From a bacterium (lineage in GTDB: Bacteria > UBA10199 > JADGCS01), in contig JAHJDR010000077.1 in the NCBI GenBank assembly GCA_018812345.1, positions 1-34,562 of the forward strand: a stretch of DNA of 34,562 nt. Reading direction: 5' to 3'. Of this stretch, positions 173-32,473 are shown piece by piece. The position numbers were made by a program, and so were the translations under genes. The notes below the pieces were generated by a model. The model did no database searches and had not been told where the DNA came from. It was given only the letters and a program-made list of their open reading frames with translations. The number at the start of each line of letters is the position of its first letter. Position 1 is the first letter of the stretch.

Positions 173-229
173 GGACTAAAGACTAAAGACTAAAGTCAGT
201 TTATGACTTTGGTCTTTGGACATTAGTCC
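173..229 (+). repeat. Heptamer-built hairpin in the tuf-rpsJ spacer (GACTAAA x3 against TTTGGTC-type units)
   Basis: The left arm 173-198 (GGACTAAAGACTAAAGACTAAAGTCA) pairs with 204-229 around the 5-nt loop GTTTA. That gives 22 of 26 positions paired, including G-U at 191/211 and 184/218. No U tract follows. Confidence 0.85.
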
Positions 230-243
230 TTGGTTCTAATAAT

Positions 244-567
244 ATGGCAACAGATTACAAAGGACAAAAAGTCAGAATTAGATTGAAAGCATTTGATCAT
301 AAATTGCTTGATCAATCGACTTCTGAAATTGTTGAAACAGCGAAAAGAACAGGTGCCAGACTTTCTGGACCAATTCCTTTACCAACAAAAATATCTCGTT
401 ACGCTGTATTGCGATCACCACACGTTGATAAAAAATCAATGGAACACTTTGAATTGCGTGTGCATAAAAGACTTTTGGATATTTTGGAACCAACACAGCA
501 AACAATTGATGCTCTCATGAAGCTTGATTTATCTGCTGGTGTAGATGTTGAAATAAAAATGATCTAG
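244..567 (+). CDS. rpsJ: 30S ribosomal protein S10 (uS10)
   Basis: 107 aa. [18 protein letters not shown]...[25 protein letters not shown] matches the S10 pattern. It is the first gene of the S10 operon order. Confidence 0.96.
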
Positions 568-577
568 TGGGGTTAAT

Positions 578-1279
578 ATGTTTGGAATGATAGGCGAAAA
601 ATTAGGGATGACCCAAGTATATGACAAAGACGGCTTGGCTGTACCGGTAACAGTTGTTATGGTTGAGCCAAATGTTGTTGCTTCTGTTATGACAAGTGAT
701 GCTAATGGTTACAATGCCATTCAGTTAGCGCATCAAGAGCAAAAAGCAACAAGACTGTCAAAAGCGATGCAGGGTCATTATAAGAAAAACAAAGTTAGCA
801 CCTATAAACACTTGAAAGAATTTAGAACAAACCGTTCTTCAGAGTATCAGGTGGGTATGAAAGTTACCGTTTCTTGTCTTGAAAATGGCGATAAAATAGA
901 CATTCAAGGCATGTCAAAAGGTAAAGGCTTTCAAGGTGTCATGAAAAGACATAATTTTCGTGGTGGTTGTGATTCTCATGGTAACTCGGTATCACATAGA
1001 GTTCCTGGTTCAATTGGTATGTGTACATATCCTGGACGTGTTATTAAAGGTAAAAAGATGCCAGGACAAATGGGACATGAAAACACAACTGTGAAAAATC
1101 TTGAAGTTGTTGGCACAGAACTAGATCAAAATCTCGTTCTCATCAAAGGCGCTTTGCCTGGAGCTAACCACTCACGTATTTATATTTATCCTCACTCCAA
1201 TGACTTTGAAAACAAAGTCTTGGCGGCTAATAAGCCTGCAGGGGAAGTAGGGGAAAATAAAGAAGTCGAAAATGCCTAG
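578..1279 (+). CDS. rplC: 50S ribosomal protein L3 (uL3)
   Basis: 233 aa. It has the (MFG)MIGEKLGMTQVYDKDG N-terminus and the FRGGCDSHGNSVSHRVPGSIG core. A GGGG run lies about 9 nt upstream of ATG 578. ATG 587 is an alternative start. Confidence 0.93.
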   Translation: MFGMIGEKLGMTQVYDKDGLAVPVTVVMVEPNVVASVMTSDANGYNAIQLAHQEQKATRLSKAMQGHYKKNKVSTYKHLKEFRTNRSSEYQVGMKVTVSCLENGDKIDIQGMSKGKGFQGVMKRHNFRGGCDSHGNSVSHRVPGSIGMCTYPGRVIKGKKMPGQMGHENTTVKNLEVVGTELDQNLVLIKGALPGANHSRIYIYPHSNDFENKVLAANKPAGEVGENKEVENA

Positions 1280-1297
1280 GCAAAATAGAGGTTTGTT

Positions 1298-1915
1298 ATG
1301 GATTTACAAGTAATTGATATAAATAATAAGAAGATATCACAAATCGATGTTAGTGATGTCATGGCTGAAAAAGTAAATAAAAAAATATTGTACTATGCTG
1401 TTAAAGCAGCGCGCAATAATTTGCACCATGGCACAGCAAAAGTAAAAGATCGTAGTGAAATCAATAAAACGAATAAGAAAACGTATCGTCAAAAAGGTAC
1501 TGGTAATGCTCGTCACGGTGCTCGTCGTGCTAACATCTTTGTTGGTGGCGCTTCAACGCATGGTCCTAGACCTCGTTCGTTTTCAGAACAAGTTAACAAA
1601 CAGTTTAAAAAACGTAGTTATCAAGAAGTATTCAAGTATCTTATTCAAGAAAACAAATTAAAAGTATTGAATGAGATTAACTTTGCAAAGGCTTCTACAA
1701 AAGAAGCTGCAGCTATTCTTGCAAAATTAGAGCTCATCAAAGCCCTTGTCGTTTTACCAGCAGAAAATGAGACGGCTAAAAAATCTTTTAGAAATCTCAA
1801 AGATGTTGGCGTTGTTAACGAAATAAATATAAATCTATATGACATGCTTCGTTATGATGCGGTTGTCATGACGGAAGAGTATTTCAAGCAAGTTAAAGAG
1901 AGATACGCATTATGA
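1298..1915 (+). CDS. rplD: 50S ribosomal protein L4 (uL4)
   Basis: 205 aa with the KGTGNARHGARRANIFVGGASTHGPRPRSF core. AGAGG lies upstream. Synteny supports the call. Confidence 0.94.
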   Translation: MDLQVIDINNKKISQIDVSDVMAEKVNKKILYYAVKAARNNLHHGTAKVKDRSEINKTNKKTYRQKGTGNARHGARRANIFVGGASTHGPRPRSFSEQVNKQFKKRSYQEVFKYLIQENKLKVLNEINFAKASTKEAAAILAKLELIKALVVLPAENETAKKSFRNLKDVGVVNEININLYDMLRYDAVVMTEEYFKQVKERYAL

Positions 1916-30321: not shown

Positions 30322-31194
30322 ATGAATGCTTTAAAAAATGTTAACGTGGGTGTCGTGCAAATGACTTGTTCAAATGATGTAGAGAAAAATCTAAGCAAGG
30401 CCATAGAAAAAATTGAACACGTTGCGGCACAAGGGGCTCAAATTATTTGTCTTCAAGAGCTTTTTAAAAGTCTCTATTTTTGCCAAGCGGAAAACAATGA
30501 TCACTTTGATTTGGCGGAAAAAATTCCTGGGCCTACAACAGATAAATTTCAAGACCTTGCCAAAAAACTGCATGTTGTGATTGTGGCGAGTCTTTTTGAA
30601 AAAAGAACAACAGGTGTTTATCATAATACGACTGTTGTCATTGATGCTGATGGCGTCTATCTTGGGAAATACCGTAAAATGCACATTCCAGATGACCCCT
30701 GCTATTTGGAAAAATATTATTTCACTCCTGGTGATTTGGGCTATCAAGTATTTAAAACAAAATTTGCCAAAGTGGGGGTGCTCATTTGTTGGGATCAATG
30801 GTATCCTGAAGCAGCCCGTCTTACAGCCTTGAAGGGTGCTGACATTATTGTTTATCCCACAGCTATTGGTTGGGTACATACAGAAGAGGAAACAGAGCGT
30901 TCCAAACAATTGGCTGCTTGGAAAGGTGTACAGACAGGGCACGCTATTGCGAATGAAGTTTTTGTGGTCACACCTAATCGTGTGGGCGAGGAAGGCAATA
31001 TCACGTTTTGGGGAAATTCATTTGTGGTGGACCCTTTTGGAGAGACTCTTTACCAGGCCTCATCAGATACAGAAGAAGCTCAGGTTGTAACCTGTGATCT
31101 TAATCGCGTGGAAGAGTATCGACGCGCTTGGCCGTTTTTTAGAGATCGGCGTATTGGGTCGTATGGGGCTATATCTAAAAGGGTGGATGATTGA
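30322..31194 (+). CDS. aguB: N-carbamoylputrescine amidase (nitrilase superfamily)
   Basis: 290 aa. The Glu-Lys-Cys triad contexts are ICLQELF, YRKMHIP and GVLICWDQWYPE. It pairs with the agmatine deiminase gene downstream. Confidence 0.85.
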   Translation: MNALKNVNVGVVQMTCSNDVEKNLSKAIEKIEHVAAQGAQIICLQELFKSLYFCQAENNDHFDLAEKIPGPTTDKFQDLAKKLHVVIVASLFEKRTTGVYHNTTVVIDADGVYLGKYRKMHIPDDPCYLEKYYFTPGDLGYQVFKTKFAKVGVLICWDQWYPEAARLTALKGADIIVYPTAIGWVHTEEETERSKQLAAWKGVQTGHAIANEVFVVTPNRVGEEGNITFWGNSFVVDPFGETLYQASSDTEEAQVVTCDLNRVEEYRRAWPFFRDRRIGSYGAISKRVDD

Positions 31195-31202
31195 TTTTAT
31201 TT

Positions 31203-31297
31203 TGGGCCGATGGGCCGAAGAGGGATAAACGCTAGACGCTAGACGATAGACGCTAGACCCCGCAAACCCCGCAAACGGGATAAACGGGGCAGGCGAT
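31203..31297 (+). repeat. Composite repeat in the aguB-aguA spacer: TGGGCCGA x2, ACGCTAG-type heptamers x4, nested CCCCG/CGGGG hairpins, CAGGCGA tail
   Basis: TGGGCCGA occurs at 31203-31210 and 31211-31218. ACGCTAG ACGCTAG ACGATAG ACGCTAG spans 31229-31256. CCCCGCAAA occurs twice (31258-31275), followed by CGGG (31276-31279) and CGGGG (31285-31289). GGGATAAAC is duplicated at 31222 and 31277. Confidence 0.85.
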
Positions 31298-31310
31298 AGA
31301 TGAGTATATT

Positions 31311-32366
31311 ATGACTAAAGAAAGTAAATACAGGTTGCCAGCGGAGTGGGAAGAGCAGGAGGCTATTATTTTATCGTGGCCTCATAATTTGGGGACATGG
31401 CCTCAAGAACAACTTGCGTTAGTAGAACAAACTTACTGTGCCCTTATTTCAGAGATAACAGAATACCAGCAAGTGTGGCTTAATGTACGTCATGAGCAAG
31501 AAAAACAACGCATTCAAGAGATGTTGCAGTTTGGGGCTGCTGATTTTAGTAACCTTGTTTTTCATATCAATCCCACACATGATGTTTGGGTGCGTGATTA
31601 TGGTCCCTTGTATGTATTGAATGAAAACAAAAGTGTGCGGCAGATCGCCAAATTTAAGTTCAATGGTTGGGGCAATAAATACGAAGAAGCTTTTCTTAAT
31701 GATAATGAGATTCCCTACTATTACGCAAAATACACGGATGCAGAAATTAATGATGCGGGCCATGTTTTGGAAGGTGGTTCCATTGATGTAAATGGACAAG
31801 GCTTGCTACTCACCTCAACAGATTGTTTGCTTAATGAAAATCGTGAACATGTTTTGGAGCAAACAAGCTTAGAAGAAATATTAAAAGAGCACTTAGGCGT
31901 TCAAAAAGTTATTTGGGCTTCTGGTCAGATTAAAGGTGATGATACAGATGGGCATATTGATGATGCGGCCCGTTTTGTTGCTGCTAATAAGGTTGTATGC
32001 ATTTCTGAAGATAATAAAAACGATGAAAACTATGACGGTATTTGCCAGCTCAAAGAGTCCCTAAAGGGTATGACAGATCAAAACGGTGATCCCATTGAGG
32101 TGGTCTATGTTCCTATGCCAGATCCTGTTTATTATAACGAAGAACGACTCCCGGCAAGTTATGCTAATTTTCTCATTACAAATAAAAAAGTTTTAGTGCC
32201 TATTTACAATTGTGATAAAGATGGCCAGGCTTTAGATGTTATTAGTAGTTGTTTTCCAGGCCGTCAGACTATTGGTATTGATTGTACAACGTTGGTTCAA
32301 GGGTTTGGGAGTATACATTGTGTGTCTATGCAGGTGCCGGCGTTAGGTGTGGGGGGAAAGGCGTAA
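31311..32366 (+). CDS. aguA: Agmatine deiminase (porphyromonas-type peptidyl-arginine deiminase family)
   Basis: 351 aa with RLPAEWEEQEAIILSWPHN, VWVRDYGP, DTDGHIDD and the C-terminal catalytic Cys context GSIHCVSMQVP. Confidence 0.87.
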   Translation: MTKESKYRLPAEWEEQEAIILSWPHNLGTWPQEQLALVEQTYCALISEITEYQQVWLNVRHEQEKQRIQEMLQFGAADFSNLVFHINPTHDVWVRDYGPLYVLNENKSVRQIAKFKFNGWGNKYEEAFLNDNEIPYYYAKYTDAEINDAGHVLEGGSIDVNGQGLLLTSTDCLLNENREHVLEQTSLEEILKEHLGVQKVIWASGQIKGDDTDGHIDDAARFVAANKVVCISEDNKNDENYDGICQLKESLKGMTDQNGDPIEVVYVPMPDPVYYNEERLPASYANFLITNKKVLVPIYNCDKDGQALDVISSCFPGRQTIGIDCTTLVQGFGSIHCVSMQVPALGVGGKA

Positions 32367-32473
32367 GGCTTAAGGCGTAGGGTATTATGACATGATTGAC
32401 TATTGGCAATTGGCAATTGGCGATCAGCAATGGTAATTGCATATTGCATATTGCAAATTGCTAATAGCCAATA
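32358..32473 (+). repeat. AAGGCKT heptamers across the aguA stop, then a long AATTGGC / ATTGCAT heptamer hairpin in the aguA-NIF3 spacer
   Basis: AAGGCGT AAGGCTT AAGGCGT spans 32358-32378. In the hairpin 32401-32433 / 32441-32473, about 27 of 33 positions pair. G-U pairs fall at 32412/32462, 32422/32452 and 32432/32442. Confidence 0.85.

Follow-up and report, generated by a model that had tools for sequence, protein, structure and literature searches.

Heptanucleotide repeat arrays, some of them palindromic, between ribosomal-protein genes of an uncultured bacterium

Introduction

What kind of sequence enlarges the spacers between the ribosomal-protein genes of an uncultured bacterium, and how it might have arisen, are the questions raised by contig JAHJDR010000077.1 (38% G+C), of which the whole 34.6-kb stretch was analysed here and is hereafter called the window. 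A previous sequence-only reading of this DNA had described at least a dozen of its spacers as hairpins built from tandem 7-nt units, each locus using a different heptamer, and had implied that such elements were new. According to our results, the period-7 arrays are real and occupy the spacers, several of them forming heptamer-built imperfect palindromes and others consisting of direct repeats only, and they belong to a kind of repeat that has already been described. We give about an even chance to the interpretation that these are heptanucleotide arrays akin to the short tandemly repeated repetitive (STRR) sequences, grown in place by 7-nt tandem duplication with their arms kept matched, and whose stem-loops would be neutral or mildly useful. 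The arrays are found inside or just after operons and would presumably be carried in polycistronic mRNA.

A period of seven confined to the spacers

In the 19 spacers of at least 40 nt (1724 nt in total), identity between bases 7 nt apart reached 0.436, compared with 0.273 ± 0.011 in dinucleotide shuffles (z = 14.4), with further signals at lag 14 (z = 9.1) and lag 21 (z = 5.7), and all remaining lags at z ≤ 2.7; the coding DNA of the window gave a lag-7 identity of only 0.257. The autocorrelation check proposed with the sequence-only reading, run here within the window, thus came out in its favour. Further, Tandem Repeats Finder (TRF) reported more than 20 period-7 arrays, all of them within spacers or at spacer edges, where overlaps with stop codons, clearest at 32358-32379, constitute the sole coding overlap. 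Period-7 repeats are present at every locus that had been listed, TRF calling no array at 4413-4440, where the unit occurs only twice, and none in the degenerate repeats at 14163-14221. The higher-order periods of 14 and 21 accompany AABB-type unit patterns, which is typical of growth by tandem duplication.

Near-identical contigs (99.84-100% identity to the window) were available from an ENA metagenome, the NCBI metagenome-assembled genome (MAG) GCA_018824645.1, which matches the window at 99.9% over 17.4 kb, and two Logan assemblies. Since the arrays are identical in these four independent assemblies, they are not an assembly artefact. No indel was found in any array spanned by five near-identical contigs, a very shallow strain sample with a divergence of 0.1-0.16%, and since no array differs at the strain level, these are not hypervariable contingency loci. 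Phase-variable contingency repeats were accordingly rejected, given the absence of unit-number changes among the near-identical contigs (few strains) and the position of the arrays between genes of essential operons. Likewise, the view that these do not look like a CRISPR array stands, as CRISPR repeats of approximately 24-48 nt are separated by unique spacers of comparable length and the units here are contiguous and 7 nt long.

Two Logan contigs break within the array at 12546-12595, as is usual for short-read assemblers at repeats, and short-read contigs stop or turn chimeric inside this array at L164 (4268-4319) and L165 (3' end). Arrays of this kind will leave MAGs fragmented, and MAGs will contain too few of them.

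Palindromic and direct arrays

Each spacer was folded and compared with shuffled sequence, and also with a control in which its right half was reversed, so that composition and periodicity were kept (Table 1). Striking imperfect palindromes built from heptamers were found at 161-243, 13448-13536 and 32367-32492, all of which fold on both strands as single-stranded DNA and had their inverted symmetry confirmed by the reversed-half control. Inverted symmetry was more modest at 2197-2281, 15283-15360 and 17553-17645, where 7-10 kcal/mol were lost when the right half was reversed, and a composite element at 16048-16160 is probably a seventh inverted locus, with a long hairpin around small inner ones. 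The proposed architecture of three to five heptamers, a loop and three to five inverted heptamers thus holds in part. Conversely, DNA folding and the reversed-half control revealed no inverted symmetry at 7091-7173, 12525-12607, 31195-31310 and 32350-32392, which are direct arrays only, and the symmetry at 4413-4440 is weak; thus, about five of the loci listed as hairpins are not hairpins. Folding of the ATTTCGG arrays is restricted to RNA, where G-U pairing allows TTCGGA to pair with another copy of itself. Regarding stability, the predicted excess over shuffled sequence was strong for the three striking palindromes, and small at 4413-4440, 12542-12596 and 14161-14224 (z from -0.8 to -1.2).

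In the strong hairpins, six of the 7 nt in each unit are paired and the other, as the sequence-only reading had noticed, forms a wobble or mismatch; its place within the unit is constant, and it is a T-G wobble at 161-243 and a G-G or A-A mismatch at 13448-13536. Furthermore, in the latter element the unit variants are mirrored across the arms, the outer GCT facing AGC and the inner GGT facing ACC.

None of the heptamer elements carries a T tract, and the terminator scan of positions 1-18000 yielded a single convincing intrinsic terminator, at 16003-16033, and picked up none of the heptamer hairpins, which agrees with the previous view that the elements are not terminators. Ribosome-binding sites downstream of the arrays remain free. 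The search against Rfam returned no match at gathering score in the window; in E-value mode, a sub-threshold match to Alpha_RBS was obtained, discussed below, and all others were chance matches to microRNA and small nucleolar RNA families.

Origin of the repeat units

Ten unit types were distinguished over 12 loci, most of them unique within the window, so that what the elements have in common is period and geometry and not sequence, as previously stated. Several units can be traced to their immediate surroundings. The first units of two arrays hold the stop codon of the upstream gene (rpsD TAG at 14161, rpoA TAG at 15280), and the aguA stop codon TAA (32364-32366) straddles two adjoining AAGGCGT units. 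The ATTTCGG unit resembles GGATTTAAGGA, the ribosome-binding context of rplF and rpsM that closes both spacers, and which is kept as ATTTAGGA in the related genome L001. These matches to stop-codon and ribosome-binding surroundings indicate that the units are copies of local sequence. The alignment of aguA to its L001 orthologue stops at residue 342 of 351, and since the stop codon is built from AAGGCGT units, the array has apparently reshaped the aguA C-terminus.

The claim of a different heptamer at each locus holds for most of them, with two exceptions. ATTTCGG is found at two loci of the window, whose segments 7112-7186 and 12546-12620 are 76% identical, and apparently at a third, since the end of L164 runs on with ATTTCGG-type units beyond its match to the window; the ACGCTAG/ACGATAG type is present at two loci.

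A small hairpin, CCCCGCAAACGGGGCAGGCGA, is also dispersed in the window (16093-16113, 16132-16152 and 31258-31300), with a variant having an AAAAA loop at 6635 (6633-6656). Its copies comprise two tandem 39-nt units at 16085-16160 and a partly duplicated copy at 31258-31300, always with heptamer-type flanks, which are of ACGCTAG type at 16093, 16132 and 31258-31300. By its sequence, it looks like a genome-specific element resembling the repetitive extragenic palindromic (REP) type.

The possibility that period 7 owes its existence to the placing of stop codons in all frames was also considered and rejected: about 10 of 16 arm units hold a stop triplet, compared with approximately 38% expected from the base composition, which is too weak, and periods of 4, 5 and 8 would do equally well.

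The same junctions in related genomes

The nearest genomes by RpoA are uncultured MAGs with identities of 83% (L001), 76% (L082 and L093) and 72% (L083), and two further relatives were identified by RpsD, L167 (82%) and L168 (GCA_015228875.1; 78%). The description of the window's junctions as swollen is borne out by these genomes, as the rpsH-rplF, rpmJ-rpsM and rpsD-rpoA spacers measure 83, 83 and 81 nt in the window and 11, 26 and 31 nt in L093, and the aguB-aguA gap measures 116 nt in the window and 8-19 nt in L001, L082 and L093. In L093, L082 and L083, the three ribosomal junctions span 11-43 nt and aguB-aguA, where covered, 19-20 nt; several further spacers of these genomes reach approximately 70 nt, and L093 carries non-periodic hairpins at rplN-rplE, rpsK-rpsD and rpoA-rplQ.

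Enlarged spacers at the same junctions as in the window were found in L001 (70-104 nt), all of them folding into hairpins, with period 7 in rpsH-rplF and rpmJ-rpsM only. Its rpmJ-rpsM array consists of five GTTCGTA units upstream of rpsM, unlike the unit of the window, and its rpsK-rpsD hairpin is non-periodic, yet it has GCTGATAGC in common with the outer stem of the window's hairpin. In L167, the rpsD-rpoA junction holds a clear orthologous array of six GTAATGT and five ATAACCC units, compared with a degenerate 3+3 in the window, both bounded by the same outer sequence of GGGTAA...TTACCC type. Thus, enlarged structured spacers across relatives indicate that this lineage tolerates large structured insertions between ribosomal-protein genes. 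From these comparisons, the heptamer form appears as one variant among them, seemingly old, judging by the shared orthologous sites, yet labile in unit number and sequence.

L167 also contains arrays at other periods (657-701 and 13355-13503), namely five copies of the 9-mer CAGTTGCAG at rpsC-rplP, and four of the 8-mer TGTGTTCA facing inverted 7-8-mers, so the design is not strictly bound to period 7. In L168 (367-12100), many ribosomal-protein junctions measure 110-240 nt. Members of a dispersed repeat family, with modules of 73 nt and 91 nt, lie at many of them in either orientation; they reach 98% identity and show no period 7. This amounts to an invasion of ribosomal-protein operons by elements resembling REP or miniature inverted-repeat transposable elements (MITE).

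Heptamer arrays in other phyla

A census of tandem arrays (at least 3 copies, 85% identity) in 178 kb of spacers from 140 unrelated rpoA loci yielded 40 arrays of period 7, compared with 10, 4, 2, 1, 1 and 0 for periods 5, 6, 8, 9, 10 and 11. The same succession of heptamer array, centre and inverted heptamer array, with other units, was found in Acidobacteriota (L040, L133, L051) and Nitrospirota (L142, L062), with stems of 25-45 bp around centres of approximately 10 to 130 nt. Across loci, the units are lineage- and locus-specific. A heptamer common to the phyla was sought and not found. Among the 62 distinct units, CAGC and CTGA cores were modestly over-represented: CAGC/GCTG occurs in 12 units (3.9 expected) and CTGA/TCAG in 11 (4.1 expected), counts in which the units are not phylogenetically independent; this excess recalls the published units TAACTGA and MTYCTGA and is only a lead.

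Table 1. Repeat elements and other spacer features of the window. TRF, arrays called by Tandem Repeats Finder; MFE, minimum free energy; z, relative to shuffled sequence; control, MFE with the right half reversed; D3, D4 and D6, repeats.
Feature	Position	Strand	Anatomy	TRF	Folding
tuf-rpsJ spacer hairpin	167..235	+	left arm GACTAAG and 3 x GACTAAA, loop TTTAT, right arm of TTTGGTC type; one T-G wobble per unit	GACTAAA 167-195	161-243: RNA MFE -40.7, z -8.7; DNA z -8.2 (+), -6.2 (-); control -16.4
rplW-rplB spacer	2199..2262	+	TGATCGC/AGATCGC units; right arm partly inverted (GCGATGA GCTGATC)	GATCGCA 2199-2226	2197-2281: MFE -20.1, z -3.2; control -10.1
rpsC-rplP spacer	4413..4440	+	GCTGACAG twice, 14 nt apart; small imperfect palindrome, weakest member	no period-7 array	z -1.2
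rpsN-rpsH spacer	6620..6666	+	small hairpin CCCCGCAAAAACGGGG with flanking arms of GCGC type; variant of the dispersed small-hairpin repeat (fold, repeat family D4, alignment); absent from the sequence-only list		
rpsH-rplF spacer	7104..7161	+	direct GGATTTC/GATATTC (ATTTCGG) array ending in Shine-Dalgarno context GGATTTAAGGAAG	TTTCGGA 7131-7161	RNA MFE -20.2 (+), -3.5 (-); no DNA fold (z +0.5)
rpmJ-rpsM spacer	12542..12596	+	direct ATTTCGG/ATTTCGA array ending in GGATTTAAGGAG; overlaps the sub-threshold Alpha_RBS match	TTTCGGA 12546-12595	z -0.8
rpsK-rpsD spacer hairpin	13448..13528	+	left arm GCTGAAA x 2, then GGTGAAA x 2; right arm inverted; a single G-G or A-A mismatch in each unit	TGAAAGG 13448-13489; CCTTTGAG 13498-13520	13448-13536: RNA MFE -36.9, z -7.1; DNA z -6.3 and -5.8
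rpsD-rpoA spacer	14161..14224	+	degenerate TAGGTAA TGGGGTA TAGGTTA CAGGTTC, then CTGTCTG TTACCAG TTACCCA	no call; read from sequence (14163-14221)	MFE -19.1, z -1.1
rpoA-rplQ spacer	15280..15346	+	TAGATAG CTATTAG TAATCAG TAATCAG CTATCAG, loop, ACTGAAG TCTGACG TCTGAAA	AGTAATC 15292-15316; CTGAAGT 15322-15340	MFE -16.9; control -9.7
Intrinsic terminator after rplQ	16003..16033	+	14-bp stem and T tract; ordinary, not a heptamer element		
Composite element between convergent rplQ and pelG	16048..16160	.	left CATCGTC TATCGTC TAGCGTT; right CAGACGC TAGACGA CAGAC; arms enclose two copies of the small hairpin, 39 nt apart (motif search; D3, D6)	ATCGTCT 16053-16071; CAGACGA 16107-16132	15976-16160, terminator included: z -8.4; 16036-16160 alone: MFE -48.6; control -40.6
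pelF-pelG spacer (both genes on - strand)	17556..17645	-	+ strand reads TTTCCGT x 2, TATCCGT x 2, TTTCCGT; inverted arm decayed (ACGGGAACCGGACAACGGTCAACG)	TTTCCGT 17560-17595 (5.1 copies, 93%)	MFE -26.5, z -2.3; control -18.1
aguB-aguA spacer	31229..31300	+	direct ACGCTAG x 4 array, then small-hairpin repeat (CCCCGCAAACCCCGCAAACGGGATAAACGGGGCAGGCGATAGA; D3, D6)	ACGCTAG 31229-31258	arms without inverted symmetry
Array overlapping the aguA 3' end	32358..32379	+	direct AAGGCGT AAGGCTT AAGGCGT	called	no hairpin
aguA-NIF3 spacer hairpin	32397..32473	+	left arm of AATTGGC type; right arm of ATTGCAT/AATTGC type	ATTGGCA 32402-32439; ATTGCAT 32436-32461	32367-32492 (whole spacer): RNA MFE -42.1, z -4.9; DNA z -4.6 and -3.6; 32393-32492: MFE -36.1; control -17.4

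Comparison with known repeat systems

STRR sequences are made of few units present in many copies per genome, with the consensus heptamers CCCCAGT, TTGGTCA and CAACAGT. These heptamers are absent as arrays from the window, where a single match with two mismatches (209) is the right arm of the GACTAAA hairpin. In filamentous cyanobacteria, STRR sequences are "usually made up of 7 bp repeats" and form hairpins, for instance between hupS and hupL, where they have been suggested to affect the stability of transcripts or translational coupling (PMC2670836); they are also found in intergenic regions of nif genes (Mazel 1990, cited through PMC4692102; PMC2670836, with Jackman and Mulligan 1995 cited there). 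In Anabaena, nif transcripts gain a longer half-life from stem-loops at their processing sites (PMC4284476). The elements of the window resemble STRR sequences in their tandem 7-nt units, their intergenic or intercistronic position, their hairpins between co-transcribed genes and their structure, maintained while varying between relatives. However, the host is not a cyanobacterium, the setting is that of ribosomal-protein operons, and the units are mostly locus-specific. Therefore, the elements fall outside a narrow definition of STRR sequences, based on consensus units and a cyanobacterial host, and fit among the broader hairpin-forming heptanucleotide repeats.

Heptanucleotide units are the commonest of the prokaryotic long simple-sequence repeats (LSSR), for which polymerase slippage has been hypothesized, according to the citations of Mrazek (2007) in PMC4679880 and PMC4692102. 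As summarized there, the class favours period 7 in non-coding tandem repeats and has a scattered phylogenetic distribution, with which our own sample agrees; it concerns direct repeats, and inverted arms, local seeding and persistence at orthologous sites do not form part of that summary. The arrays studied here are short, with 3-7 units, and come under the broad definition (5-11 nt, non-coding, beyond chance), LSSR having length criteria of their own.

Paired repeats have been reported in Geobacter metallireducens, where tandem hepta-, octa- and nona-nucleotide repeats stand on opposite strands, in classes defined by GTTGCTYN (class 1, octanucleotide), TCTCCGTS(Y) (class 2) and MTYCTGA (class 3, heptanucleotide), together with elements of four GGACCGG units; each class has one consensus at 16-49 loci and was interpreted as binding sites of global regulators (PMC2700814). 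Similar to these, the arrays of this lineage are intergenic repeats of 7-9 nt, if the periods of 8 and 9 in L167 are included, paired on opposite strands at variable distance; unlike them, their units vary between loci. Direct TAACTGA repeats are found in marine Beggiatoaceae, cyanobacteria and Bacteroidetes (PMC4679880), in two to six copies just upstream of start codons and also within ribosomal-protein operons, as in the window; these differ in having one genome-wide unit, nearly always direct and with no predicted secondary structure. The GGGAATC repeats of Xanthomonas occur at times as inverted pairs (PMC4692102). Neither STRR1-3 nor TAACTGA, GGGAATC, GGGGATT or GGACCGG forms an array in the window, and the matches with two mismatches are the window's own, different units.

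Since STRR, LSSR and Geobacter repeats were already known, the elements of the window belong to a described kind and are not new in kind, contrary to what the sequence-only reading had implied; 7-bp hairpin repeats are on record in cyanobacteria (PMC2670836), paired repeats in Geobacter (PMC2700814) and heptanucleotide LSSR more widely (PMC4679880, PMC4692102).

REP elements have one consensus over hundreds of copies and no tandem sub-units. These and the bacterial interspersed mosaic elements (BIME) of enterobacteria and pseudomonads may be functionally like the elements of the window, as imperfect palindromes at intercistronic or 3' positions that are, or here would be, transcribed into stem-loops. 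They differ in that the heptamer elements lack a single consensus, the only REP-like feature of the window being the small CCCCGCAAACGGGG hairpin. Thus, the view that the elements are not REP or BIME is upheld within the window as regards one-consensus family behaviour, with the reservation that this hairpin (three to four copies) and the ATTTCGG arrays do recur.

Proposed origin and role of the arrays

According to the interpretation that the arrays grew in place, the seed would be a short local sequence, often 7 nt including the upstream stop codon, a neighbour of the Shine-Dalgarno site, or the arm of a pre-existing hairpin, which would be copied in 7-nt steps through slipped-strand mispairing during replication. 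If the seed is part of a hairpin arm, the opposite arm would be kept matched to it, through template switching in the quasi-palindrome, because a continuous stem is selected for, or through both; this would produce long stems that are imperfect, with a mismatch or wobble recurring at intervals of 7 nt. Such arrays would remain at the same junctions over long periods of evolution, their units changing in sequence and number. As part of the mRNA, they would most likely be stem-loops between cistrons that are passive or of mild use, for instance as barriers to 3'-exonucleases or as processing points, and the periodic mismatches, by limiting the perfect helix to at most 6 bp, should make the palindromes tolerable in DNA. 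The mirrored variants, the local matches of the units and the persistence at orthologous junctions are consistent with slippage and template switching, and it is from these that we infer both.

Several observations weigh against this interpretation. The lack of unit-number polymorphism among near-identical contigs indicates that slippage is not fast, in a very shallow sample; the sharp preference for 7 over 5, 6 and 8 is not explained by slippage alone; and two unit types at several loci, together with a dispersed non-repetitive hairpin, are not accounted for by purely local growth. As for a role in RNA, the spacers of the window contain 25 G-U pairs when folded as the sense strand and 2 as the antisense, and the sense strand folds better. 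In 578 co-directional spacers, however, the difference between sense and antisense fold energy is correlated with strand G+T content (r = -0.64), and in the strand-energy comparison, where only 19 heptamer-positive spacers fitted the crude gene model, p was 0.08. Since the asymmetry follows G+T content, it is no proof of selection at the RNA level, and this argument was dropped.

The recurrence of some units could instead reflect small mobile or dispersed elements of MITE, REP or foldback type, whose arms consist of tandem sub-repeats and which evolve so fast that their copies seem locus-specific. The similarity between the two ATTTCGG segments and the apparent third locus at the end of L164, the CCCCGCAAACGGGGCAGGCGA copies with their ACGCTAG-type flanks and the variant at 6635, the growth of the aguB-aguA spacer to 116 nt where relatives have 8-19 nt, and the dispersed family in the L168 spacers (110-240 nt, both orientations, up to 98% identity) all agree with this account. 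Nevertheless, the majority of units are single within the window, the first units carry the stop codon or ribosome-binding context of their own neighbour, which fits local seeding, neither target-site duplications nor shared termini were seen in the window, and the outer stems of orthologous arrays in the window, L001 and L167 have sequence in common at a given junction; in balance, we consider mobile elements rather unlikely as the general explanation. Far less probable are footprints of repeated insertion and excision by a transposable element with 7-bp target-site duplications, each cycle adding one local 7-mer. The idea, raised for other heptamer repeats in PMC4679880, would account for the exact 7-nt step and the local derivation of the units, and insertion sequence (IS) elements stand at fixed distances from the paired tandem repeats of Geobacter (PMC2700814). 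Neither the window nor the loci of relatives, however, hold a transposase gene or IS end according to Pfam searches and gene calls, and matched inverted arms as well as the period-8 and period-9 arrays of L167 would be left unexplained. Moreover, the excision of bacterial IS elements rarely retains both copies of the target duplication, which also speaks against such footprints.

A different proposal is that of specific regulatory sites in RNA or DNA, either operators for the autoregulation of ribosomal proteins, such as the S4-binding leader of the alpha operon, or sites for a regulator that recognises the repeats. In the S10 and alpha operons of E. coli, the junctions upstream of rpsJ and rpsM are regulatory, and hairpins occur at these two junctions in the window. 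In L001 and L167, hairpins persist at junctions where the window has them. Furthermore, Alpha_RBS (RF00140) gave a full-length alignment at 12539-12640, with E = 4.6e-4 in a 17.7-kb search, placing its hairpin on the ATTTCGG array, and regulatory sites have been proposed for the Geobacter paired repeats (PMC2700814) and the Beggiatoaceae TAACTGA (PMC4679880). The score of this match (31.9 bits) is nonetheless below the gathering score of 38 and derives mostly from the start of the rpsM coding sequence and the Shine-Dalgarno site, known ribosomal-protein operators are unlike low-complexity repeats, and elements also occur among the pel genes, in the aguB-aguA gap and downstream of aguA. The variation of units between loci means that one sequence-specific factor cannot bind them all. 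The elements are neither terminators nor sites of one common factor, and dedicated regulatory sites appear unlikely to us.

Another reading goes further than growth in place, with the palindromic heptamer arrays as a distinct, convergent and self-extending "foldback microsatellite" arising from a specific step of replication or repair that proceeds in quanta of 7 nt and retained as punctuation of polycistronic mRNA, in which the hairpins would serve processing or stability and the periodic mismatches would guard against cruciform and double-stranded RNA nucleases. We regard this as a speculative and improbable extension. If true, the class would span this lineage, Acidobacteriota, Nitrospirota, cyanobacteria and Geobacter, and a rapidly evolving regulatory layer, made of structure only, would be present in ribosomal-protein operons across several phyla.

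An excess of 7-nt repeats in bacterial non-coding DNA has been on record since 1990 and 2007, as far as later papers cite those reports. To this, the window contributes a clear non-cyanobacterial example, with local copying of the units, joint growth of the arms, persistence at junctions despite sequence turnover and recurrence in at least two further phyla, in otherwise compact ribosomal-protein operons. Altogether, these features favour local duplication with arm-to-arm copying over a sequence-specific binding factor. The orthologous spacers are now identified as loci suited to covariation analysis and RNA-end mapping, the practical value being modest, as the organism is uncultured.

Genomic context of the window

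The S10, spc and alpha ribosomal-protein clusters occupy positions 1-15975 of the plus strand, from the end of tuf to rplQ. They are followed on the minus strand (16161-29820) by an operon for a Pel-type exopolysaccharide, including PelG, PelF, a TPR protein and a GH114 (PelA-like) protein. Downstream of it, Pfam searches and gene calls identified aguB and aguA, of the putrescine pathway, and then a NIF3 gene. The nearest genomes by RpoA or RpsD, all of them uncultured MAGs, carry the labels Deltaproteobacteria, Nitrospirales or "uncultured bacterium". Beyond this uncultured lineage, the closest RpoA sequences, at approximately 60% identity, are those of Geobacteraceae, Haliangiales and Thermodesulfobacteriota (Desulfobacterota- or Myxococcota-like MAGs). 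No relative with an RpsD identity between 85% and 100% was found in a collection of 5.8 billion proteins.

Three features of the ribosomal-protein genes were also observed. The rplX gene (L24) is absent from its usual slot between rplN and rplE (5803-5839), the open reading frame at 5840-6388 (182 aa) encoding L5 only according to Pfam, and it is likewise absent from this slot in L001 (1422-1493), L093 (1871-1939) and L167-L170; the L24 gene of this lineage must therefore be elsewhere, or lacking. S5 has an apparent N-terminal extension of approximately 70 residues rich in E, K and T (8076-8288), amounting to 221 aa from a GTG start, compared with 201-236 aa in relatives, and one gene caller placed its start at 8289. 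Finally, L17 (204 aa in total) ends in a K/A-rich C-terminal tail of approximately 80 residues (15740-15975) that contains 15-nt repeats.

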